From Candidatus Aminicenantes bacterium UBA2190 (GTDB lineage: Bacteria; Acidobacteriota; Aminicenantia; UBA2199), in assembly GCA_002335385.1 (NCBI GenBank), contig DCVK01000071.1, positions 13,330 through 77,329 on the forward strand: a stretch of DNA of 64,000 nt, in the 5' to 3' direction. The position numbers and the translations under genes were made by a program. The number at the start of each line of letters is the position of its first letter. The stretch's first letter is position 1. This document shows, one piece after another, positions 1,217 through 63,627 of the stretch. The notes beneath the pieces are model-generated. The model searched no databases. It was not told the DNA's origin and was given only the letters and a program-made list of their open reading frames with translations.

Positions 1217-1662
1217 CAGACGGCAGGGGGAAAAGTGTCAGTGTCAGTGACAGTGTCAGTGTCACTGTCAGCAGGAAAGGAAAGTAATCGGTTGACGGTA
1301 GACGGTTTACGGTTAACGGTCAGGATGGGTAATATTAAGACCTAAATCCCATTTCTTCGTTTGGGTCAATGTCCCAGCCAGGGGATTTGGCAATTTGAAT
1401 TTATTTGGGATTTGGAATTTGGTGCTTGGAATTTAATTCTTCACATGTCACGCGTCACGAAGATCGATTTCTTCTCTTTGTTTTGGACATTGGGTATTTG
1501 GAGCTTGGAATTTGTTTGGAATTTGGTGCTTGAGATTTGGAATTTAAGTCCTAATATTGCCTTTTTCTGACCCTCTACCGTAAACCGTCAACCGTACACC
1601 GAGTTCGCTCTGATGTTTTTTCCCTGCCGTCTACCGTCCGCCGTAAACCGTCAACCGTCCAC
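1217..1662. repeat. Mosaic intergenic element, copy A (6/7-nt periodic arrays plus AT-rich TTGGAAT-type core, nested inverted repeat)
   Basis: GTGTCA x6 at 1235-1270. NACGGTN heptamers at 1289-1321, with reverse-complement arrays at 1574-1600 and 1625-1662. Two direct AT-rich copies at 1354-1440 and 1470-1569. CACGCGT units at 1442-1460. Outer arms 1217-1350 and 1539-1662 are imperfect reverse complements. Confidence 0.85.
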
Positions 1663-1676
1663 CAAGCTCTTATAGT

Positions 1677-4431: not shown

Positions 4432-7400
4432 TCAGCGCCGGGAGCGCAGGCGCAGGTCGAGGCTGTAGCGCCCTTCCTGGTTGCGCATGGCGATCAGCGA
4501 CATGGTCGGGGAAAGCTGGTATTGCAGGTAGAGGATCTCCTGGCGGGCGGTGGAGAGGGTGGTGGAGTAGACGACGACCAGATCCTTGGAGATCGACTTG
4601 CCGATGGTCAGCCGCGAGGTGTCCACGGTCGACTGCCCGGAAACGGAAAAGACGGGATCGATGCGCAGCATGTCGATCCCCAGCAGCTGGTTGGCCCGGT
4701 TCTTGATCTCTTCGGTCAGCTTGGCGGTGACCAGGGCGGTGCCGCCTTCGCGCGAGCTGATCTCCAGGGAGCCGGAGCGCTGGAACACCTCGCCCAGGGA
4801 CACCAGGGCCAGGATGTCCTGGATCGGCAGCGGCGGCGAGGAGCTCAGCTCGGGCTTGGCGCGCGAGGCGCTGCCGCGGATGTCGAAGCGGATGCGGTAA
4901 CTCTGGATGAAGGCCTCCGACTCGACGTGGATCAAGGGGTCGATGACGGCGTTGTTGTTGAACACCAGCTTGGCCTTCACCAGGCTGAAGGAGCGGTCGG
5001 AGAAATAGATCTCCCCCTGGCTGCCTTCGCAGCTGCCGCTCAGGATCGGGAAGCTGGCGGTGCCGGTCAGGCGCAGCTTGAAGCGGCCGCGGATGCGCCC
5101 CAGCGAGTTCTGCATCAGGATGCTCTCGCTGGCCATGGCGATGTCCAGCCGCAGCATCTCGAGGATCTTGGACTCGGCGGTGGATAGCTGCGAGCGGGTG
5201 CTGAATACGATGCGCTCGTCGATCTCGCGCAGCCAGTCGACCGTTTGAAAAGCCAGGGAACCCGAAAGCAGAAGATGTTTCTCCGCGTATTTCAGGGTCA
5301 GGCTGGGACTGACCAGGCAGGAAGTGCGGTCCATGGGATAGAGGCGCAGGTCCTTGCCCTGCAGGTTGAGGGTCATTTCCTGCAGTTCGCCCTCCGCCAC
5401 GATCAGCTGGCCGTTGCCCTCCACCGGGCCGCCCCCCATCTTGCCGCGCAGCGACTGCAGGGAGAAATTCGTGCCGGTGAAAGTGACCGTAGCCTGAAAG
5501 TCGTCCAGCGAGTGGGAAAAGTTCGGCAGCGAGAGGGTGCTCCCGGAGAACACGGCCACGCCGCGGCTGTGCATGCCGCCGTCGCTTCCGCTGTAGATCT
5601 GCCCCAGCAGGCGCATGGTGCCGGAGTTGTTCTTCCAGGGGATGAGCAGGTTGAGGTCGTTGAGCTCGAACTGGAAATTGCCGTCGTATCTCCCCTGGCG
5701 GAGACCGAGATCGAGCTTGTAGGGGAAAGCGCCGAGTTCATCGGTCACTTCGCCCTGGGCGGACAAACTGAAGTCGGAGAAATCGGTCAGCAGCGCGGCC
5801 GTGCCGCGGGCGCTGAAACCGCGGTCAGGGTAGTAGAACATGTCGTGGCAGCGATAGGATACGCTCAGCGGGTCCTTCATGAACTCGCCGCGGCCGTCGA
5901 TCTCCAGGTCGGCGCGGCCCTGGAAGCCCCCCAGCCACTGCGAGACGTCGAGGCCGGCGATGCGGCCCTGGATGTCGAACTGCCGGCGGGAGAAATCGAT
6001 GCGCACGTCGCCCTGGGCCCGGCCGCCGCGGTGGGTGAATTCGAGCCCCGACAGGCCGATGTCCTCCAGGTGGGAGCGCAGTTCGCCCTTGACCCGCTCA
6101 AGGGCGTAGCCCATGAACGTCAGGCGGTCGGCCGTGAAATTCCCGTGCACCTCGGGCTCCTTCAGCGCCTTGCCTGTGCTGTAGGTGAAGTCGCCCGCGA
6201 TCCGGCCTTGCAGGGCCACGTCCAGGTTGAGGATCCTCATGATCTTGTGTGCCTCGCCCTGCAGATCGGGGAAGCGGATGGCGGTCCTGCCGGCGGCGAT
6301 GGACAGCTCGATGCGGGAATCCAGGTCGGCAGCCGCGACGGTGATGTCGCCGCGGGTCCCCGGCGGCGCGTGGTGCACTTCGCCTTTCAGGCTGGATATG
6401 GCCTGGCGGTTGACCCGGAAGCCGTCCAGGCGGAAGCGGCTGTCGATGCGTTTGCGGCCCCGGCGCCTGTCGATCACGAGCTCGAAGGCGCCGCTGCCAC
6501 CGCTCAATTTCCAGGGCCGCAGGTCGATGTCCAGGTAGTGGGCCGAGTAGGGAGCGATGTTCTCCATGTCGTTGAGGGCGGCGTCGATGCGGATTTCCGT
6601 GGTGTGGGCCAGCGAATCGATCAGCCCCTTAATGCTGAGCTCGCCGGCTCCGAGCTGCAGCTTCTGCCCCGAGAACATGGTCCGTTTGGCCTTCTTGTCG
6701 CGCTGGAATTCGATGCCGCCCCGGAAGACGAAGGGGCGGTTGAGCGGCTGCGAGGGGGCGGCGTCCAGGTCGGCCCGGCCGCGGATGAATCCCGGGACGA
6801 ACTCCACCTCGCCGCGGCGGACGATGCCGGCCAGCGGCGCGTCGTCGGTGATGTCCAGGATGTCGGCGATGGCCGCGGCGGGCAGGTCCTGGAACGAGAT
6901 GCGGGTCTCCTTGCCCCGGTTGGCCACGCTCAGCTTCGTCCGCGCCAGCTCGCTGTGGAAGGAGGCCTCCAGCTCCAGGGTCCGGCCCAGGCTGTTCCAC
7001 TGCGCCGTGCCGCGCAGGTCGCGGCAGCGGTTTTCCTTGATGCGGCAGGAGGGCGAGTTGAAGTCGGCGCTGAGGCGCACGACATGCTGCGCGTCCCGGG
7101 TGATGCGGGCGTCGGCGTAGGTCAGGCCGTTGACGGCCAGCTCATCCAGCAGGGGCAGCAGGACGTTGTCCGGGTTGCCCTGGGCCGACACGTTGAAATG
7201 GTAGGCGCCTTGCGGCAGCAGGCGGCCGTTGAGGCCGAAGCGCAGCCGGCTGGTCTGCCAGGCGAAGCGGCTGATCTTCCAGTTATCTCCCTGCTGGTGG
7301 ACCTCGGCGGACATATTGCCCTCCAGCGACACCGGATCGCCGCTCACCGGCAGCGTGACCTTCAGATGGGGTGAATCGACGCGAAAGGAGTAGCCCTCGG

Positions 7401-8574: not shown

Positions 8575-8970
8575 CGGAACGCGGAACACGTTATGCGTTA
8601 TGCGTGATGAGAAAGAACAAGAACTTTAAATTCGTGACGCGTAACGCGTGACGCGTGACATGTGAAGAATTAAATTCCAAATCCCAAGCACCAAATTCCA
8701 AATAAATATCAAATTCCAAATTCCAATTACCCAAACAAAGACACTCACAGGTTCTTCTCTTCGTTTGGGTCAAAGTCCCCGCCAGGGGATTTGGTAATTG
8801 GTGATTGGTATTTGTTTGTGATTTGGAGCTTGGGATTTGGAAATTAAGTCCCAATATTGCCTTTTTCTGCCTGTCAACCGTTCACCAATTACTTTCATTT
8901 CCTGCTGACACTATCACTAACACTGGACTCGTCTCTAATTCTTGCTGACGCTGTCACTGACACTTGCTGT
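8575..8970. repeat. Mosaic intergenic element, copy B
   Basis: Heptamer arrays at 8575-8607 (cgcggaa/cacgtta/tgcgtta/tgcgtga) and CGTGACG x4 at 8633-8660. AT-rich inverted arms at about 8663-8741 and 8757-8850. TGACAC-type hexamers at 8906-8929 and 8945-8968. Blocks 8758-8798 and 8836-8869 are near-identical to 1354-1394 and 1536-1569. Confidence 0.85.
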
Positions 8971-8975
8971 TCGTT

Positions 8976-11126
8976 CTATTTCTTTTTGGCCCTGCTGCTG
9001 CTCGAGCCGGAGGATGAAGAGGAGCTGGAGGCGCGGCTCGAACTCCCGGAAGAAGAGGAGCCGGAGCCATAGCTGCGGCTGGGGGAGGATGAGCGACTGC
9101 CGCCGGAGTAGGAACTCCCGGCATAGCTGCTCGCGGGGCGGCTGTAGGTGGAGGGGCGGCTCGACATGGCCTGCGGGCTCGAGCTGCCGCCCGTATCATC
9201 GCTGCGGGAGCGGTAAGCGCCGTCGCTGGAGCCGGGCCGCGAATAGCTGGAAGCGCCGGCGGAGGAGGGGATGCTGCCGATATACCTGCGGCCGGAATTG
9301 GCGGCCGCCTGGCTCCCCGTGTCCTCGCTGGAGGTGTATGCGGAGCCGCTGCCTGAAACGGTGCGGCTCCGATAACGGGCGACCGGGGCGGCGGCGCCGG
9401 CGGCATGGCCGGAATCGCCGCTCCCCGAATACGAGAGGTAGGACGGCTCTCCTTTTTTCTTTTTTCTGGCCGTGCCGCTGGAGCTGCCGGATGAGGAGGA
9501 TGAAGAGGAAGATGAGGAGGAAGATGAACTGCCGGAGCGGCTGCGGTAGCTGCCGCTGCTCGAGCTGCCGGTGCTGGAGGAGCTGCTGTCGCCCGAGTCA
9601 TCGGACCGGCTGCGGTAGCTGCCGGTGCGGGTCGAGCTGCCGGTGCCGGAAGAACCGCCGGAGCCGGATGTGTAGCGGGTGCGGCCGGATGACTCGTCGG
9701 CGGCGCGCGAACGGAACTCGGTGTCGTCCTTGACGGCCGGGCGGATCGTTTCCCGGCTGCCCGGGGCGGCGCTGTACCTGTAGACGGAATTGCGGATATC
9801 GGACCCCTGGGCGCGGTACTTTTCCGCGCTGACGACGGCGCCCTGCTTGTAGGTCACCGAGCGGCCCCTGGCGTTGATCACCGTGACCTTGTTCAGCTCC
9901 GGGCGCAGGGAGGGGGCCGAACCGCGGAAGGCGATGGTGCCGTCGTTGCCCTGGCCCGGCGTGGTCTTGTTCACGGCCACGCGGTGGATGTTGGCGGCCG
10001 ACAGCTCGTTCTTGCGGATAATGATGGTGGAGCGGGAATGGTGCGGGATGCCGCGGTGGTAATCATAATGGCGGTCCCAGTGGTTGTTGATGATGACCAC
10101 CGGCCGGTTCCACCAGCTCAGCGGGCTCCAGCCGTAGTAATGGTCATTCCAGAACCAGGAAACCCATGCCGGTGACCAGTGGTAGGAGGGAATCCAGTAC
10201 CAGCCGTTATTGTAGCTCCAGTGCCAGCGGCCATAGTGGTGGGTGAACCAGCCGCAGGTGTCGTACGAGGTCCAGACGTAGCCGTAATAGGGGTTCCACA
10301 CCCAGCGGCCATTGGCATACGGCCTCCAGTCGGCGCCGGCATGGTAGGGACGCCAGACATAGGAACTGTAATCGGACATGTAGATCCAGCGGCCGGCACG
10401 CGACATCTCGTACTCATAGTCTTCGTAGCCCCCCTGCAGGTAGCGGGAGGTGCCGTAGCGCGCGTAGCCCAGATCGCGGTTCTGTTCCTCGTTCCAGCGG
10501 TCGAAATCGTCCTTCTCCGAGGCGTAGAAATAAAAGGGCCGCTCGGCCATCTGGCCGCGCGCCATGACGATCTTCTGGTTCTCGCGGACATTGCGGCTGC
10601 TATCGCTGCCGGCCACCTCGGCGATGCCTTCCAGCACGACCACTTCCGTCTGCCCTTTAACGCCGGAGTTGACGCGGTACACTCCCTTGTCCAGGAGGAA
10701 AATGCCGCAGTCGGCGGTCTGGATCTCGATGCCCTTTTCGCTGTCCAGGTTCTCGATCTCCAGGTAGATGCTCCCCTCCTCCAGGCGCACGGCCAGGTCG
10801 GTGCGGCGCAACGCCGGCACCTTTTCCAGCACGACCACCGTGTCGGCGTCCAGGCGCAGGTAGTTCAGGCGGCCGAGGTATACGGCCAGTCGGCCGTCGG
10901 TGGTGCCCACGACGTCCTTCTCGAACAGAGGCAGGTTGACCGTGGCCTCCTCCATGCCCTCGTCATAGGATCGTTGGACGAAACCCTCGCCCTCCACGCT
11001 CTTGACGCGCACGACCTTGGCGTTGTCGTAATATTTGGCTTCGTTGGCGTTCGCTTCCAGGTCGTCGGACCAGCAGGCGCCCGACAACAGCAGCAGGCTC
11101 GCCAATGCGATTATTGTCTTTTTCAT
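8976..11126 (-). CDS. Secreted FecR-domain / Trp-Tyr-rich (DUF6600-like) protein with a roughly 250-aa Ser/Gly/Arg low-complexity tail
   Basis: Start ATG at 11126 with a GAGGAGG 5 nt upstream. Signal peptide MKKTIIALASLLLLSGA. FecR-like beta region, then a W/Y-rich segment (WYWIPSYHWSPAWVSWFWNDHYYGW), then a C-terminal tail of YRSRS...SSSS repeats ending RAKKK. Confidence 0.7.
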   Translation of the reverse strand: MKKTIIALASLLLLSGACWSDDLEANANEAKYYDNAKVVRVKSVEGEGFVQRSYDEGMEEATVNLPLFEKDVVGTTDGRLAVYLGRLNYLRLDADTVVVLEKVPALRRTDLAVRLEEGSIYLEIENLDSEKGIEIQTADCGIFLLDKGVYRVNSGVKGQTEVVVLEGIAEVAGSDSSRNVRENQKIVMARGQMAERPFYFYASEKDDFDRWNEEQNRDLGYARYGTSRYLQGGYEDYEYEMSRAGRWIYMSDYSSYVWRPYHAGADWRPYANGRWVWNPYYGYVWTSYDTCGWFTHHYGRWHWSYNNGWYWIPSYHWSPAWVSWFWNDHYYGWSPLSWWNRPVVIINNHWDRHYDYHRGIPHHSRSTIIIRKNELSAANIHRVAVNKTTPGQGNDGTIAFRGSAPSLRPELNKVTVINARGRSVTYKQGAVVSAEKYRAQGSDIRNSVYRYSAAPGSRETIRPAVKDDTEFRSRAADESSGRTRYTSGSGGSSGTGSSTRTGSYRSRSDDSGDSSSSSTGSSSSGSYRSRSGSSSSSSSSSSSSSSGSSSGTARKKKKGEPSYLSYSGSGDSGHAAGAAAPVARYRSRTVSGSGSAYTSSEDTGSQAAANSGRRYIGSIPSSAGASSYSRPGSSDGAYRSRSDDTGGSSSPQAMSSRPSTYSRPASSYAGSSYSGGSRSSSPSRSYGSGSSSSGSSSRASSSSSSSGSSSSRAKKK

Positions 11127-21413: not shown

Positions 21414-21451
21414 ATTAAAAAGAAAGGGCAGGCACGGGGGCCTGCCCCTAC
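21414..21451 (-). terminator. REP-like GTAG hairpin (copy 1) followed by a T-rich tract; candidate intrinsic terminator of the aor operon
   Basis: The minus strand reads GTAG-GGGCAGGC-CCCCGT-GCCTGCCC and then TTTCTTTTTAA. This is an 8-bp GC stem with a 6-nt loop, about 108 nt downstream of the aor stop. Confidence 0.5.
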
Positions 21452-21475
21452 AAAACGCCTTAAACTGATTTCTTT

Positions 21476-21546
21476 GCCGTCGGCCGTAAACCGTCCGCCG
21501 TCAGCCGAGCCATTTAACGTCGAACAGCGAACGTCGAACAAAGAAC
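21476..21546. repeat. Two adjacent heptamer-periodic arrays (GCCGTNN x5, then AACGTCG-type x4)
   Basis: gccgtcg/gccgtaa/accgtcc/gccgtca/gccgagc at 21476-21510. aacgtcg/aacagcg/aacgtcg/aacaaag at 21516-21543. Confidence 0.7.
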
Positions 21547-21558
21547 CTCGGTCTTGCC

Positions 21559-23733
21559 TTACAGGTGCTTCCTGACCAGCTCGATGACCTCGGGCAGGTC
21601 CATGCCGATCTCCTTCAGGTGCTCGACCGTGGGCACGCCCTCGGGGGACCAGCCGCGGCGCTTGAAGACGGCGTCGATCAGGCTCTCGTATTGCGCCTCG
21701 CGGTACTGGCGCAGCAGCGTGATCTTCTCCTCGGTGCTCTTGCCCGTTGGGTCGATGTTCTGCTTTTCCTTCAGCGCCTTGTCGTAGCGCTCGGCGCGCG
21801 ACTCGTATTCCTCGACCGTGACCGGGCCCATGGCGCGGTAGGGGGGATAATCCTCAACGCGCTTGCCGTGGCCCATCTTCAGGTTGAAGACGCGCTGGAA
21901 GTTGTAGACGCGCTCCGACTGGCGGATGAGCTCCTCCTTGTCGATCTTCTCGCCGGTGATGGCGTTGTAGATGTCGACGTAGTTCTGCACGTGCTCGGGC
22001 ACCTTGTTGGGTTCCGGGTACTTGGCGTTGTCGGCCGGTTCGATGTCGTTCCAGGGCAGCTTGCACAGCCCCATCAGCCCGAACCAGGTGCGGAACATGG
22101 GGAAGTAATGCAGCGCCTCGGCCTTCTTCTCGAAGGTGGGGATCTGGTTGTTGACCATGTCCATGAAGATCAGCCAGGCCTCGTCGTGCTGCGGACCCTT
22201 GTTGGTCAGGTAGTAGCCGCCCTGCTGGGCCAGCGATTCCTTGGACTGGTATTCCGATTGTTCCAGCCCCTTGCCGTGCATGCCGATGTCCTTGAGGAAC
22301 CGGGCGTCGGCGCCGTATTCCCTGGCGAAGTACTCCTGCATGAACTTGATGCCCTTGCCGGCGATCAGGCCGAACTTCTCGCCGCGGGCGATCTGGTGCA
22401 TCATCTCCAGCGCCGCTTCCCAGTTGCCCCAGGTCATCTCCAGGCCGCCGCAGCGCTCGCTGTTCAGGATGCCGTTCTCATAGCAGTCCATGACGAAGCC
22501 GGTGATGGTGCCGAAGGAAATGGTGTCCAGGCCGTAGGTATCGCAGTAGAAATTGATCTCGACGACGGCCTTGGGGTCGAAGATGGCCGGGTTGGAGCCG
22601 CAGCCGCCGACCGTCTCGTACTCGGGGCCGTCGACCAGCACCTTGTGGCCCTTGTAGGGTCCGGTGCGCAGCTCGAAGTTGTCGATGCCGTGGGCGCAGG
22701 ACATGGTGCAGCCGAACCAGCAGCCGTCGGGGACGTTCTGGGTGAACATCTCCTTCCATACCCAGGAGGCGAGGTTCTTGGCGTCGGGGTGGCTGCCGAA
22801 GCGGAAGTTCTTGGTGGGCAGCAGGTCGTAGTCGTTCATGATCTCGACCAGGTGGGCGGTGCCGATGGTGCGCATCTGGCACTGCTTTTCGTCGTGGGCG
22901 ATGATCTCCTTGTGCAGCTTCAAGCCCGTTTTTTGCAGGGTCTCCATGTCGACGGGGTTGTTGGACTTGCCGGTGAGGCCCGAATACTTGACCACCATGG
23001 CCTTGATCTTCTTATTGCGGAACACCGTGCCGATGCCGCCGCGTCCCGCCTGCTTCAACCGGGGCAGCTTGCGGCGCTTGTCCCAGTAAGAGAAGTTCAG
23101 GCAGCCGATCCAGGCGTGCTCCGAGCCGCGGCCGGCGGAGACCACCGATATGTGCTGCTTCTCGCGCTCGCTGGCGGCGAACATCTCGTGCAGCTGCTCG
23201 GCCACCACGTGCGAGTCGGTCGCCTCCAGCGGCGCCTCCATGATCTGGACCTTGCCCTGGTTGCCGTCGATGTAGATCAGAACGTCGCGGTCGGCCTTGC
23301 CCTGGATCTCCATGGCGTCGAAACCGGAGAACTTCAGGTAGGGGCCGAAGTGGCCGCCGACGTTGCTGTCGATGGGGATGCCGGTCTGGGGCGAGATGGT
23401 GGTGACCAGCGACTTTCCCGAGCCCGGGTAATTGGTGTTGCCGGCGATGGGGCCGGTGGCGATGCAGATCTCGTTCTCGGGCGAGTCCCAGCGCGTGTCG
23501 CCGCTGACCGCGTCCCACAGCAGCTTGAGGTCATAGCCCTTGCCGCCGATGAACTTTTTCTTCATCAGCGCCGGCACCGGTTTCTCCTTGATCTCCAGGG
23601 TGGCCAGGTTGATGTACAGGGTGCGGTCGTTGTAGCCCTTGACCACCGGCTTCAGCTCGTAGGTGAATTCCTTCAGGACCTTGTGGGCCTGTCTGATCTT
23701 TTCGATGTCGTGCTTGGCTTCATTGGCGCTCAT
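21559..23733 (-). CDS. aor: Aldehyde:ferredoxin oxidoreductase family tungsto/molybdopterin enzyme (long form, 724 aa)
   Basis: Start ATG at 23733 follows AAGGAGGA. The N-terminal AOR fold includes YNDRTLYINLATLEIKEKPVP...KFIGGKGYDLKLLW. The track's 846-aa ORF runs on through the out-of-frame ferredoxin gene. Confidence 0.85.
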   Translation of the reverse strand: MSANEAKHDIEKIRQAHKVLKEFTYELKPVVKGYNDRTLYINLATLEIKEKPVPALMKKKFIGGKGYDLKLLWDAVSGDTRWDSPENEICIATGPIAGNTNYPGSGKSLVTTISPQTGIPIDSNVGGHFGPYLKFSGFDAMEIQGKADRDVLIYIDGNQGKVQIMEAPLEATDSHVVAEQLHEMFAASEREKQHISVVSAGRGSEHAWIGCLNFSYWDKRRKLPRLKQAGRGGIGTVFRNKKIKAMVVKYSGLTGKSNNPVDMETLQKTGLKLHKEIIAHDEKQCQMRTIGTAHLVEIMNDYDLLPTKNFRFGSHPDAKNLASWVWKEMFTQNVPDGCWFGCTMSCAHGIDNFELRTGPYKGHKVLVDGPEYETVGGCGSNPAIFDPKAVVEINFYCDTYGLDTISFGTITGFVMDCYENGILNSERCGGLEMTWGNWEAALEMMHQIARGEKFGLIAGKGIKFMQEYFAREYGADARFLKDIGMHGKGLEQSEYQSKESLAQQGGYYLTNKGPQHDEAWLIFMDMVNNQIPTFEKKAEALHYFPMFRTWFGLMGLCKLPWNDIEPADNAKYPEPNKVPEHVQNYVDIYNAITGEKIDKEELIRQSERVYNFQRVFNLKMGHGKRVEDYPPYRAMGPVTVEEYESRAERYDKALKEKQNIDPTGKSTEEKITLLRQYREAQYESLIDAVFKRRGWSPEGVPTVEHLKEIGMDLPEVIELVRKHL

Positions 23734-23735
23734 GT

Positions 23736-24128
23736 TCAGTCCTCCTTGACTTCGATCTTCAGGGCCCCGGTCGGGCACTCCTTGGCGCAGGCGTCGCAGG
23801 CGATGCACTTGAAGGGCACCAGCCCGCCGCGCCAGGTCATCATGGTGTCGGTGGGACAGGCGGCAACGCAGGCCAGACAGTTGATGCACAGGGCACGGTT
23901 GATCAGGACCACGCCCAGCCTGTTGACCGAGATGGCCTGGGTGGGGCATTCGGCGATGCAAGCCCGGCACTGGTCGCAGGCGCTCAGGGTGTAGGAGCCG
24001 TCGGCGGCCGGGGTGACCCGGATGGCCGATTTTTCCGGGTTGTCCTCCTTGAAGTAGAGCTTCGAGCATACGCTCATGCAGGCGTTGCAGCCGATGCACG
24101 CCTCGGCGATGGTCTTGAGATATTTCAT
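23736..24128 (-). CDS. Poly-ferredoxin (four CxxCxxCxxxC motifs), AOR electron-transfer subunit
   Basis: Motifs are CIGCNACMSVC, CDQCRACIAECP, CINCLACVAACP and CIACDACAKECP. Its stop lies 2 nt before the aor ATG. Confidence 0.85.
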   Translation of the reverse strand: MKYLKTIAEACIGCNACMSVCSKLYFKEDNPEKSAIRVTPAADGSYTLSACDQCRACIAECPTQAISVNRLGVVLINRALCINCLACVAACPTDTMMTWRGGLVPFKCIACDACAKECPTGALKIEVKED

Positions 24129-27423: not shown

Positions 27424-27498
27424 GTCAACCTCCGAACGATTTTTCCTCTATTAGATATGGCGGAACGGCCGTTCATCTCATGAACCCAACGGGGAAAC

Positions 27499-27612
27499 AG
27501 TGAAAAGTGAAAAGTGAATAGTGAAAAGTGAATAGTTAAAAGAAGCCGCATTGCAGCGAACCATTGCTTTCATGTCATTGCTGTTTTACTTCTTATTTTT
27601 CACTTTTCACCC
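27499..27612. repeat. AGTGAAA heptamer array with an inverted partner (long hairpin) in a divergent promoter region
   Basis: agtgaaa x7 with variants at 27499-27545. CATTGC recurs at 27549, 27562 and 27576. The inverted partner cttcttatttttcacttttcaccc lies at 27589-27612. Confidence 0.75.
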
Positions 27613-35202: not shown

Positions 35203-35658
35203 ATGGCGTTCATGAGCCAGCACAAGCTGCTCGCGATCATCGACGACGACCGCATCAAGACGGCCATCGCCGCGGCGGAGAAGTGCACCTCGGGCGAGAT
35301 CCGTGTTTCCGTTTCGCGCTTTTTCTACGGCAGCGTCCGCCATGCCGCCGAAAAAGCCTTCAACCGCATGGGCATGCGCAACACCCGCGACCGCAACGGC
35401 ATCCTCTTCTTCGTCGTCCCCTCGCGGCACCGCTTCGTCGTCGTCGGCGACGAGGGCATCCACCGGAAGGTCGGCCAGGAATTCTGGGACCAGCTGGTCG
35501 CCGCCATGGCGGGCGACTTCAGGGAAGGGAAGTTCAACGAGGGCTTGCTCCACGGCATCGTGGAGTGCGGCCGCCTGCTCGCCGCCCACTTCCCCCACCA
35601 GGGCGAGCGCGACGTCAACGAGCTGCCGGACGACATCGATTTCGGCAACAAGGAATGA
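35203..35658 (+). CDS. TPM-domain protein (cytoplasmic type)
   Basis: SGEIRVSVSRFF...NGILFFVVPSRHRFVVVGDEGIHRKVG. 151 aa, third gene of the LemA-TPM-TPM set. Confidence 0.75.
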   Translation: MAFMSQHKLLAIIDDDRIKTAIAAAEKCTSGEIRVSVSRFFYGSVRHAAEKAFNRMGMRNTRDRNGILFFVVPSRHRFVVVGDEGIHRKVGQEFWDQLVAAMAGDFREGKFNEGLLHGIVECGRLLAAHFPHQGERDVNELPDDIDFGNKE

Positions 35659-35663
35659 AAGAA

Positions 35664-36012
35664 ACCGGTTGACGGTAGACGGTGTACGGTCATAACAGCA
35701 ATACGAAGACTAAAATACCAAATCCAAAATTCCAAATAACAAACAATATCCAAATTCCAAATTCCAATTTCCAAAACGAAAGCTCCTTGCAAAGGATTCT
35801 CTTTGTTTTGGTCATTGGGTAATTGGAATTTGGAATTTATTTGGAAATTGGTGCTTGGGATTTGGAATTTAAGTCCTATTAATTCCTTATTCTTCCACCT
35901 TACGCCCTGCGACTTCCGCTTTATGCCTTATGCCGAGTTCTGTTCTTCCTCGTTACGCGTCACGAATAGCGTCTTGTTTTCTTTCGCATAACGCCTGACG
36001 CATAACGAAACT
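35664..36012. repeat. Mosaic intergenic element, copy C
   Basis: NACGGTN heptamers at 35667-35690. AT-rich inverted arms at about 35708-35782 and 35801-35876 around an apex TCCTT-GCA-AAGGA (35784-35796). CCTTATG-type heptamers at 35898-35935. cgttacgcgtcacg and cgcataa/cgcctga/cgcataa arrays at 35951-36008. Confidence 0.85.
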
Positions 36013-36032
36013 CGTTGTTTATTCTTTCCTTG

Positions 36033-37400
36033 TCATGGAAAGAACTCGTCATGGATGGCGCGAACGGCGCGGTCCAGGTCCGGGCTCCTGACCAGGAAAT
36101 AACAGGCGACGGAGGAGGCGCCGGCGGCGGCCATCTCGACGTTGATCTTCTCGCGGGCCACGGCGGTGAAGATGCGGGCGTAGATCCCCTCCTTCTCCAT
36201 GATGCGCTCGCCCACCACCCCGACCAGCGCCAGCCGCTCCTCGAGCTCGATCCTCTTGATGACGCCGTTGACGGCGGCTTTCATTTTACGCAGGCTGCGC
36301 CGGGCGTCGGCGGGATCGAGCAACAGGTTGATGCAGGTCTGCGAGGTGAGCACCGAGTGGATGTTGATGCCGGCGCCGGCCAGCAGCGAGCTGACGCCGG
36401 CGAGCAGGCCGGGCTTGGAGCCGATGCCGGCGCCGTGGATGCGGATGACGGCCAGTCGGCGGTTGGCGGCGATCCCGGCCACGTCCACCGCGCGGTTCGG
36501 GCCGGAGGCGGTGATCTCGCTGCCCGCTCCGGCGGGATCTTCCAGGTTGCGCACGAAGATCCGGGTGCGCGTCCCGGCCAGCGGTTCCACGGTGCGCGGG
36601 TGGAGGATCCTGGCGCCGAAGTAGGAGAGCTCGGCCGCCTCGGCGAACGAGAGGCGCTCCAGGCGGCGCGCCGTCGGCACCCGGGACGGATCGGCGCTCA
36701 TGAAGCCGTCGACATCCTTCCATACCTCGAGGCGCTCCGCCCCCAGGGCATAGGCCACGGCGGCGGCGCTGTAATCGGAGCCGTTGCGACCCAGCAAGGT
36801 GACGGCCCCGCCGGGCCCGCGGCCGAAAAATCCCGGGATGACCGGGATGATGCCCCGGCGCAGCAGAGGGGCAACCTTGGCGCGCAGGACCCTGCGGGTG
36901 CGGTCGCGGTCGATGCTGGCGTTCTCGTAATTGCCGTCGGTGCAAATGCCGGCCCGATGGGCGTCCAGCGCCGCGGATCTTGTCTCCAGGCACTCCAGGA
37001 CGCCGGCCAGCAGCCGCGCCGCCAGCCTCTCGCCGTAGCTCAGCAGCCGGGCTCGTACCGCCGGCGTCAGGTCGCGGTGCCAGGCGATGCCGGTGAGCAG
37101 GCGTTCGACCTGGGCAAGTTGCGCGGCGATCGCAACCTGCAGGCGCTTTTTCGCGGGTCCGCCCGGGCACAACTCGTCGATGACGGCAAGGTGCCGGGTC
37201 GCCAGGGCGGCCAGGATGGGGGGGATGTTCCGCTCATGGCGCTTGGCCTGCTCGATGGCGGCGAGCAACCGCTCGGTCACGCCGTGGATGGCGGAGACCA
37301 CGACCACGGCCCGCCTCTGCGCTGAGATGATGGCGCAGGCCTGCGCGATGCTGCGGCTGTCGCGCAAACAGCCGCCGCCGAACTTCATCACCCTAGTCAT
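36033..37400 (-). CDS. lysC: Aspartate kinase
   Basis: VMKFGGGCL..., with a full-length amino-acid kinase domain plus ACT-like C-terminal domains. 455 aa. Overlaps asd by 8 nt. Confidence 0.9.
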   Translation of the reverse strand: MTRVMKFGGGCLRDSRSIAQACAIISAQRRAVVVVSAIHGVTERLLAAIEQAKRHERNIPPILAALATRHLAVIDELCPGGPAKKRLQVAIAAQLAQVERLLTGIAWHRDLTPAVRARLLSYGERLAARLLAGVLECLETRSAALDAHRAGICTDGNYENASIDRDRTRRVLRAKVAPLLRRGIIPVIPGFFGRGPGGAVTLLGRNGSDYSAAAVAYALGAERLEVWKDVDGFMSADPSRVPTARRLERLSFAEAAELSYFGARILHPRTVEPLAGTRTRIFVRNLEDPAGAGSEITASGPNRAVDVAGIAANRRLAVIRIHGAGIGSKPGLLAGVSSLLAGAGINIHSVLTSQTCINLLLDPADARRSLRKMKAAVNGVIKRIELEERLALVGVVGERIMEKEGIYARIFTAVAREKINVEMAAAGASSVACYFLVRSPDLDRAVRAIHDEFFP

Positions 37401-50386: not shown

Positions 50387-50522
50387 GATCGTCCAGGTTC
50401 CGGGAATGCCGGCACGGCGATTAATTTTCAATTTATGGTGCTCAAACGGCACGGCTGCGGGTTTAAGAGTTATCATGCTTGTGATAGAATTGCCAAACAT
50501 GTCGGCCATAAGGGGAACGCTC

Positions 50523-51635
50523 ATGAAAAGGATCGGCAACCGGCGGTTTTTGCTTTCACTGGTTCTGGTGTTCAGCTTGTTTCTCATGCCGGCCTGCCGG
50601 CCGGAGGAGGTCATCCCGACACCCGAGCCGGGGCCGAAAGCCGCGCGCGAAACGGTTGTATTCGTCGCCGGCTGGGGCGATACGGATGATGAAAGCTTCG
50701 CCGGCTATTGGCAGGATGGCCAATGGAAGGGTCTGAGCGCATGCAGCGACCCCGGGGAAAGGCCCTGGCGTTATGCCAATGCCATTTCCGTTTCCGGGGA
50801 CGATGTCTATGTCGGCGGATACAACGGCTGCGATTCTAAACTCGTGGCCTGTTATTGGAAAAACGGGGCGCGGACCGACCTGGCGCATCCCGCGGCCGAC
50901 AGCCATGCCAGATCCATGTGCGTTTCCGGGGACGACGTCTATATCGCCGGCTGGCTCGATTTCGGCGACTACACGATCCCCTGCTACTGGACGAACGGGG
51001 TGTGCACCGAGTTGAGCCGCCTGGGCCCGAGCAGGGTCGACCAGGCGGAGGCGATCGTCCTTGCCGACGGGGACGTTTATGTCGCCGGGACCGTCAACAG
51101 GAACCCCGACGCGAGCCAGATGATCTCCTCCCCCTGTTATTGGAAGAACGGCGAGCGGGTCGACCTGAAGGCCTACGATACCCTGAACCTCGGGTTCGGC
51201 AACTCGATCTGCGTGGCACAGGGCAAAGTCTATGTCGCCGGACATGTCGCGTATGGCTGCAGCTCGATGCCCTGCTACTGGGTCGACGGCGTCCGCTACG
51301 ATTTGAAAAAGGACGTCCCCGGCTGGGCGAACTCCATCCAGGTTTCGGGGACGGACATCTATATCGCCGGCATGGTGCAAACGGGGGAGGGCGAGAGCTA
51401 CAAGACGACGCCCTGCGTGTGGAAGAACAAGGCGCGCACCGACCTGGACGTGGCCGATAGCGGCTCCGCGTGGTCCATCTTTGTCCTGGACCAGAACGTG
51501 TTCGTCGCCGGATTCGGCAACAGCGGTTCTTATTACCATACCCCCTGCTACTGGAAGAACGGCGTGCGCACCGACCTCGTGCCGGGGGGCTATCCCGGAG
51601 GTTGCGCCCATTCCGTCTTCGCGACATACAAATAG
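50523..51635 (+). CDS. Lipoprotein with about seven tandem ~48-aa repeats (probable beta-propeller)
   Basis: ATG at 50523. Lipobox FLMPAC. The recurring unit is ...(S/C)(I/V)xVSGxDVY(V/I)AG...PCYW(K/T)NGxRTDL... Confidence 0.65.
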   Translation: MKRIGNRRFLLSLVLVFSLFLMPACRPEEVIPTPEPGPKAARETVVFVAGWGDTDDESFAGYWQDGQWKGLSACSDPGERPWRYANAISVSGDDVYVGGYNGCDSKLVACYWKNGARTDLAHPAADSHARSMCVSGDDVYIAGWLDFGDYTIPCYWTNGVCTELSRLGPSRVDQAEAIVLADGDVYVAGTVNRNPDASQMISSPCYWKNGERVDLKAYDTLNLGFGNSICVAQGKVYVAGHVAYGCSSMPCYWVDGVRYDLKKDVPGWANSIQVSGTDIYIAGMVQTGEGESYKTTPCVWKNKARTDLDVADSGSAWSIFVLDQNVFVAGFGNSGSYYHTPCYWKNGVRTDLVPGGYPGGCAHSVFATYK

Positions 51636-63559: not shown

Positions 63560-63627
63560 CTCGGTATACGGTAGACGGCAAGAACGGAAACAAACTATCG
63601 GGACAAGTGACGAGTGACGAGTGACGC
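63560..63627. repeat. Heptamer-periodic arrays (NACGGNA x4, then GTGACGA x3)
   Basis: ctcggta/tacggta/gacggca/agaacgg at 63560-63587. gtgacga/gtgacga/gtgacgc at 63607-63627. Confidence 0.7.

Follow-up and report, generated by a model that had tools for sequence, protein, structure and literature searches.

Element C, which fills the spacer between the aspartate kinase gene lysC and a TPM-domain gene, is probably an ORF-less, non-autonomous member of a family of gene cassettes spread over many bacterial phyla, and so are copy B and, in rearranged form, copy A of the same 64,000-nt stretch of DNA (hereafter, the window). In other genomes the same arms enclose a gene of about 115-125 amino acids of the PF05635 family (four-helix bundle, S23p, 23S_rRNA_IVP, Avd-like). 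We class C as an ORF-less derivative and not as a full member because it holds no PF05635 ORF, yet relatives with the same arms carry one. What has been shown directly is that C is homologous to the cassette at both ends, that the arms keep a fixed polarity and are associated with the gene, that a hairpin fold is predicted and that the orthologous site turns over between related species. To our knowledge, the C family has no transposase relative. New here are the arm family across phyla and its link to PF05635 cassettes.

Element C and its copies in the window

The lysC/TPM spacer (35659-36032; 374 nt) has an A+T content of 61% in a genome of about 65% G+C and is composed of repeats over its whole length. 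The initial annotation had placed the element between the 3' ends of the two genes, which is borne out by the stop codons at its flanks, those of the TPM-domain gene (35203-35658, plus strand) and of lysC (36033-37400, minus strand), and the module positions it gave are accurate to within 1 nt (Table 1). The long hairpin it described is also real, with arms of about 75 nt built from 7-nt units and heptamer arrays outside them. The arms form an inverted repeat of 75 nt, 72% complementary across an 18-nt gap, and tandem repeat analysis (TRF) finds period 7 in both (35712-35776, 9.6 copies; 35823-35870, 7.3 copies). Period-7 tandem arrays in non-coding DNA are present in C as a description of its building blocks only, not of the ordered arm.

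Table 1. Parts of element C and extent of copies A and B, in positions of the window
Feature	Position	Strand	Basis or remark
Outer heptamer array CGGTTGA CGGTAGA CGGTGTA CGGTC	35666-35691	+	Sequence
Linker, ..GCAATACGAAGACT	35692-35707	+	Outward continuation of the arm end, conserved (AAGACT / AGTCTT)
Left arm, CA-rich, degenerate CCAAATN heptamers	35708-35782	+	Inverted repeat, TRF
Apex, with mini-hairpin TCCTT-GCA-AAGGA at 35784-35796	35783-35800	.	Sequence, fold
Right arm, GT-rich, best-conserved part	35801-35876	+	Arm profile, E 2.9e-13
Conserved 3' extension of the repeat unit, beginning AAGTCCTATTAATTCC..	35877-35964	+	Matches to L084, L085 and L088
CCTTAYG-type heptamers CCTTACG CCCTGCG ACTTCCG CTTTATG CCTTATG	35898-35935	+	
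AGTTCTGTTCTTCC, then CGTTACG CGTCACG (35951-35964)	within 35877-35964	+	
Heptamers CGCATAA CGCCTGA CGCATAA	35985-36005	+	Sequence, minus-strand fold
Copy A: AGTGTC hexamer array, CGGTNNA array, arm-end remnant, two direct GT-type arms, inverted ACCGTNN array	1230-1670	.	
Copy B: CGTTATG and CGTGACG arrays, hairpin (CA arm 8672-8740, GT arm 8774-8844), ACCG and GACACT arrays	8575-8975	.	

The two arms of C are unequally preserved. The right arm holds the pattern TTGGAAATTGGTGCTTGGGATTTGGAA at 35841-35867, while the left arm is too degenerate for an arm-profile match at E<1e-3. Within the right arm, GGTCAT (35810-35815) is the complement of the cassette start-codon motif CCAATGACC and so places an ATG on the minus strand at 35815-35813; the inner end of the left arm reads CCAATTTCC, so the ATG has been lost there. 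The start-codon motif is thus kept on the minus strand and degenerate in the other arm, and the 18-nt apex occupies the place that the PF05635 ORF takes in full cassettes. The ORFs listed across C (35325-35792, minus strand; 35803-35991, plus strand) are almost certainly spurious.

The initial annotation had proposed comparing the fold with that of shuffled sequence, and in this comparison C comes out well ahead. The 186-nt core has a predicted RNA folding energy of -62.4 kcal/mol on the plus strand and -66.3 kcal/mol on the minus strand, where shuffles average -32.6 and -34.0 (z = -8.17 and -8.20; none of 200 shuffles as good), and the entire spacer also folds better than its shuffles (z = -6.65 and -6.88). 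The stem spans about 75 positions; its pairing is imperfect, with many AU and GU pairs. On the minus strand, the sense strand of lysC, the heptamers at 35985-36005 are predicted to pair with the CGTNACG array, forming a separate, GC-richer hairpin directly past the lysC stop codon. A search of C against Rfam gave nothing at the gathering threshold, and a permissive threshold returned sub-threshold miRNA-hairpin noise.

The right arm had also been described as kin to copy A, and indeed 35797-35893 is 89% identical to 1472-1568 of that copy; the same interval is 73% identical to 8772-8868 of copy B. Over the 64-kb window, the arm profile matches inside A, B and C only. All three copies had been thought to share one module order. 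The shared modules stand, and B has a hairpin like that of C; A does not, having two direct GT-type arms (1372-1434 and 1478-1545) and a short left-end remnant only. Copy A lies between convergent genes for a DUF5916 protein and a BamA-like Omp85 protein; copy B separates a DUF6600 gene, at its stop, from the start of a transaldolase gene, both on the minus strand. Adjoining B, the 3' part of the DUF6600 gene contains GCT/GGA-rich low-complexity repeats with periods of 9-72 (8990-9700, minus strand).

The modules outside the arms recur as well. The CGGT module at the left of C reappears as inverted arrays at both ends of copy A, and ACCGTNN arrays likewise border the arms in many Aminicenantes loci. 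The AAGACT/AGTCTT extension of the arm ends is also found around gene-carrying cassettes, reading TAAGACT-AAAATTCC ... GGAATTTTAGTCTTA in a Chrysiogenia locus (L087). The repeat unit exceeds the hairpin, as about 300 nt are alike at 75-84% in other Aminicenantes with the order of the flanking arrays kept: 35659-35963 is 77.5% identical to L085 over 307 nt, 35797-35966 is 81% identical to L084, and element C is 75% identical to L088 over 297 nt.

One closely related contig, L001, was set aside as a sign of conservation. It is 97.6% identical to window positions 26033-47400 overall and 100% identical over 32-40 kb, so that its copy of C, with 8 kb of identity around it, is uninformative; this very uneven divergence suggests recombination or a chimeric assembly. 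Orthologues of lysC at 67-88% identity carry the labels Aminicenantes or Acidobacteria, and the contig of the window is also present in hydrocarbon and other anoxic metagenomes. Matches in the RNA libraries X20-X22 were to the arm only and came from other copies and organisms.

A cross-phylum arm family and the PF05635 cassette

In a scan of one genome per species, a 27-nt pattern taken from the GT-rich arm (TTGGAAWTTGGTGCTTGRGATTTGGAA) is present, among the matches listed, in more than 110 genome stretches. The hosts listed include many Aminicenantes MAG contigs, Bacteroidales, Saprospiraceae, Planctomycetota, Omnitrophota, WOR-3, Verrucomicrobiae, Desulfobacterales, Chrysiogenia and one cultured Maribacter isolate, together with the CPR groups Saccharibacteria, Gottesman-, Kerfeld- and Peregrinibacteria and Microgenomates. 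Host G+C content ranges from 0.35 to 0.67, and part of the matches lie on megabase contigs. Mis-binning cannot account for this phylum spread, though a few labels are doubtful (for example, a "Clostridia" bin of 0.62-0.65 G+C).

The arm is made of different heptamers in a fixed order, in the GT sense GTTTTGG TCATTGG .. AATTTGG AATTTRT TTGGAAT TTGGTGC TTGGGAT TTGGAATTT, and its non-repetitive parts (AGGACT, the TTTRT spacer and CCAATGACCAAAAC) are also shared across phyla. An imperfect complementary partner arm occurs within 250 nt upstream in 75 of the 113 matches listed and downstream in none. Among the listed loci, profile pairs comprise 42 with the CA arm followed by the GT arm, one in the reverse order and 12 direct pairs, beside many single arms; in a CA-GT hairpin the CA-rich arm comes first on whichever strand is read. 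Among ORF-less hairpins, own arms match no better than the arms of other elements (identity 0.644, against 0.673 for permuted pairs), so there is no arm covariation that would prove selection on pairing, and the stem of these hairpins follows from family membership.

Single CA-sense arms were also seen to give a leader and an ATG (CAATGACC..) to unrelated genes in three phyla. Such an arm leads a TPR/transglutaminase protein gene (L008:5070-5140), a gene for an RlmL-type RNA methyltransferase whose domain starts at residue 21 (L029:3074-3140) and a lipoprotein gene with the signal peptide MTKFIFSVLLCFLCSC (L041:7813-7880). At two further loci (L044:3225-3336 and L078:2061-2214) the outer flanks are mutually complementary (for example, caaaaaggtg / cgcactttttg and ggggcgcgg / ccgccccc), which makes it look as though a host hairpin carried the element at its tip; IVSs (intervening sequences) are placed likewise in 23S rRNA helices.

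In Chrysiogenia (L087) and Kerfeldbacteria (L040), the gene inside full cassettes sits precisely between the two arms, CA on one side and GT on the other. The intact cassette of an Aminicenantia MAG (L199) fills the gap that separates a type II secretion F gene, from its stop codon, from the ATG of the gene that follows. The ATG and first codons of the cassette gene lie inside the inner motif of the arm, CCAATGACCAAAA; the stop codon, or a point a few bases past it, marks the beginning of the GT arm. The cassette protein matches PDB entry 2RLD (E 2e-12) and belongs to a clade of more than 7800 proteins at E<1e-20, with members about 70% identical across phyla.

The association between arm and gene holds when approached from the protein. 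We fetched 80 metagenome PF05635 loci by protein alone, without reference to arms, and found 37 arm-profile matches in the 36.7 kb within 250 nt of the PF05635 gene, compared with 24 in the other 116 kb, a fivefold higher density. Arms upstream of the gene are in the CA sense by 12 to 3 and those downstream in the GT sense by 21 to 1. Composition follows the same polarity: G falls to 4% or less over some 50-nt window in 37 of 72 upstream flanks, as does C in 57 of 75 downstream flanks, compared with 29 of 906 controls, and both flanks show a lag-7 periodicity peak. Loci under the profile threshold, inspected by eye, also have heptamer arms with a more diverged vocabulary. Most of the 80 loci have heptamer arms in matching orientation. 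Loci L200-L207 (gene at 2001-2360) encode one and the same PF05635 protein, flanked at several places by large Laminin_G_3 paralogues in tandem, and the gene caller extends the next ORF through the 3' arm from 3 nt past the stop codon; for the protein P0173, found on many contigs between tandem LamG-type paralogues, there was no clear evidence of movement.

Cassette RNAs are predicted to fold on their own arms. In all nine cassettes examined, the 5' arm pairs with the 3' arm through 43-72 base pairs and leaves the ORF in the loop. Own-arm duplexes average -39.1 kcal/mol compared with -35.1 kcal/mol for arms combined across cassettes, and none of 5000 permutations did as well. A MAFFT alignment matches C (minus strand) and B with the L087 and L040 cassettes at both ends, the ORF of about 400 nt being absent, and we therefore regard C and B as gene-less shells of the cassette. 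The aligned non-repetitive parts include AGGACT, CCAATGACCAAAAC (minus strand of C) and TTTTAGTCTT, and the arm ends of C are homologous to the gene-flanking ones, start-codon motif included. There is no PF05635 gene in the window or in about 45 Aminicenantes loci of 8 kb. The window also holds no rRNA, and none of 20 cassette loci tested lies within rRNA.

A full cassette consists of a 5' CA-rich heptamer arm supplying a leader and the ATG in CCAATGACC, the PF05635 gene and a 3' GT-rich arm. In RNA made from either direction, the arms would form a long, imperfectly paired stem whose loop is the ORF, or the 18-nt apex in the case of C; a transcript entering C from either neighbouring gene would make the CA-rich arm first and then the GT-rich arm. 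We infer that C derived from a gene-carrying cassette or arose by copying of cassette arms, and that it spreads, or has spread, as selfish DNA. By analogy with IVSs, its stem would be a substrate of RNase III, which may cut or cap read-through transcripts of lysC and TPM there and trim both mRNAs. Any terminator or insulator effect would be a by-product, and C a tolerated remnant of selfish DNA with an incidental effect on its neighbours. The PF05635 gene might instead settle into pre-existing hairpins.

A bolder extension, which we consider speculative and rather improbable, is that the heptamer arms are binding sites of a ring-forming Avd-like protein, at 7 nt per subunit, and the cassette is a new retro-mobile element. 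The stem-loop RNA released by RNase III would then be copied back into DNA by a reverse transcriptase acting in trans, with the 23S rRNA IVSs as the rRNA-resident subset and the Aminicenantes hairpins as non-autonomous passengers. ORF clustering over the 110 loci listed found no transposase, reverse transcriptase or other recurrent gene beside the elements, PF05635 excepted.

Termination, transposition and slippage as alternatives

The description in the initial annotation (modules, hairpin, kinship with A and B, position) stands; the function it assigned, that of a bidirectional terminator or insulator, found no positive support, there being neither a GC-rich stem with a U-tract nor a bias towards gene 3' ends. 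In that reading, C would be selected as a hairpin that stops or caps the convergent transcripts and blocks antisense read-through. It draws on the position of C between two gene 3' ends in a spacer with no other terminator-like site, on the strong fold on both strands and on the similar placement of copy A between convergent genes. Against it, no GC-rich stem with a T-run occurs inside 35659-36032, where the stem of C is AU/GU-rich and imperfect, and the genome does have a classical terminator elsewhere, near 21418-21455 on the minus strand. The gene contexts of 53 elements in the listed high-GC loci, called with a GC3-based caller, are tandem in 29, convergent in 13 and divergent in 11 cases, compared with 139, 42 and 39 for all junctions. 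Single arms sit as 5' leaders directly upstream of start codons, and one relative has only 45 nt at the orthologous site and no such element. Selection for termination or insulation is therefore unlikely, and C may have an incidental 3'-end effect.

The region of the classical terminator has repeats of its own. At 21418-21550, heptamer arrays (GCCGTNN, AACGTCG) lie just past the stop of the minus-strand gene 21559-24099, and a classical GC-rich hairpin with a T-run follows them on the minus strand (GGGGCAGGCCCCCGTGCCTGCCC TTTCTTTTT).

The orthologous lysC-TPM spacer was compared in four relatives with conserved gene order. At 86% lysC identity (L115), a spacer of 360 nt holds a hairpin with different outer arrays; at 84% (L116), 157 nt hold one arm only; at 79% (L117), 304 nt have no CCAAAT arms; and at 77% (L118), the 45-nt site is empty. 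The L117 spacer instead contains a different palindromic insert (5368-5673), in which inverted GGCGTAC-type arrays of about 31 nt flank about 190 nt of unique G+C-rich sequence, and the empty L118 site has a single CGGCGTACG.

These differences in presence at one site would also suit a conventional MITE or a REP/BIME-type element, dependent for its movement on a transposase, or a REP-associated tyrosine transposase, that another locus encodes, with adjacency to PF05635 being secondary. So would the small size, the multiple copies, the inverted ends of fixed polarity and the mosaic of modules, as in BIME or BOX elements. Yet inspection of 75 elements by eye showed no target-site duplication (junctions could not be read from the orthologous empty site, which has diverged too far), no transposase-like gene is recurrent near the 110 loci listed, and PF05635 is the only gene inside matching ends. 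The arms moreover carry the PF05635 start codon and begin at its stop codon, and viral contigs and phage and plasmid records contain no match, although the BLAST low-complexity filter may mask matches in phages and plasmids. We consider this origin improbable.

The known elements of these kinds are close in form. Correia/NEMIS elements of Neisseria and MITEs are short, multi-copy and co-transcribed, with inverted ends that form a double-stranded RNA stem, which RNase III cuts in Correia/NEMIS. C is likewise short and multi-copy with inverted ends and an RNA stem; in contrast to them, its family shows no TA or other target duplication and its apparent parent carries a four-helix-bundle gene. 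REP/BIME and BOX elements are extragenic, as C is, and are built from few modules in varying order and orientation, some acting on mRNA 3' ends, so that the module-built mosaic is a shared trait. REPs, however, are 35 nt long with a GTAG head and are species-specific, whereas the units of C are 7-nt arrays and arms of about 70 nt, and its family crosses phyla.

Local heptamer slippage, giving arrays like the cyanobacterial STRR or TAACTGA repeats with neither common descent with the cassettes nor function, is very improbable: it would suit the abundance of heptanucleotide arrays, the commonest long simple repeats in bacteria according to Mrazek 2007 as quoted in PMC4679880, the unrelated heptamer arrays in the window at 21476-21550, 27494-27542 and 63602-63626, and a complementarity between arms no better than the family average, but it leaves unexplained the fixed order of different heptamers and the non-repetitive parts common across phyla, and also the 42:1 polarity among the listed loci. 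Known heptanucleotide repeats (STRR of cyanobacteria; TAACTGA of Beggiatoaceae, Cyanobacteria and Bacteroidetes) are intergenic, often lie upstream of start codons and occur in several phyla with no known carrier (PMC4679880). They resemble C in their period of 7, intergenic position and cross-phylum range; they are direct arrays of one unit, whereas C consists of ordered arrays of several units inverted around a gene or apex.

The window also contains other repeats. The array at 27494-27542 comprises seven tandem heptamers (GAAAAGT/GAATAGT) in a 140-nt spacer of divergent genes, on the promoter side, unlike A, B and C, and that at 63602-63626 is a short GACGAGT array of 3.6 copies, also in a divergent spacer. 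Five DNA repeats of 129-153 nt at 50770-51580, inside ORF 50406-51635, resemble a tandem protein repeat in which a CYWKNG-like motif is conserved. Roles as a sigma-54 site, CsrA sponge, Rho rut site or RHH heptad operator were considered from sequence alone and dropped without support.

Relation to rRNA intervening sequences and implications

A close counterpart of the cassette is the IVS of 23S rRNA genes in Leptospira, Coxiella and Brucella. In Coxiella burnetii it is 428 nt long and carries an S23p ORF of the PF05635 family, its inverted repeats form a 28-bp stem that RNase III cleaves, and the ATG is directly preceded by tandem heptamers whose number differs between strains (PMC4990558). 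IVSs have long been suspected of being mobile (PMC4990558), and PF05635 also occurs in rRNA insertions of CPR bacteria (PMC11270868). The cassette shares with them the gene family, a terminal inverted-repeat stem with the ORF in the loop, tandem heptamers beside the start codon and a patchy distribution suggesting horizontal transfer (PMC4990558, PMC11270868); the likeness is one of gene family and architecture, not of sequence compared with a characterised IVS. Unlike a 23S rRNA IVS, C lies between protein genes and not in helix 25 or 45 of 23S rRNA, lacks an ORF, has CCAAAT-type heptamer arms of about 75 nt in place of a 28-bp stem and belongs to an element with many copies per genome in Aminicenantes.

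PF05635 is also related to Avd of diversity-generating retroelements (PMC10053308), and Avd and the cassette protein belong to one four-helix-bundle superfamily (PMC10053308). In contrast to Avd systems, no reverse transcriptase, template repeat or variable repeat lies beside the cassettes examined. Literature searches found nothing for the exact arm sequence or for Aminicenantes repeats, and in the part of the literature covered we found no description of CCAAAT-type arms, of cassettes between protein genes or of gene-less shells.

Short-read assemblies appear to break at the arms. One public contig from the organism of the window (L004, SRR5323328_278) ends at window position 35854, inside the right arm of C, and many PF05635-carrying contigs are just 1-2 kb long.

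If C is indeed a shell of the cassette, three subjects that are usually treated apart would become linked: 23S rRNA IVSs with an S23p ORF, the PF05635 family and intergenic heptanucleotide arrays in bacteria. PF05635, the "four helix bundle" family to which Avd is related, is very large and unexplained. The IVS would then be one landing site of a phylum-crossing cassette that also settles between ordinary genes and leaves gene-less hairpin shells behind. Such shells would break metagenome assemblies and spawn false ORFs; they can give leaders and start codons to unrelated genes, and could cut operon transcripts where they land.
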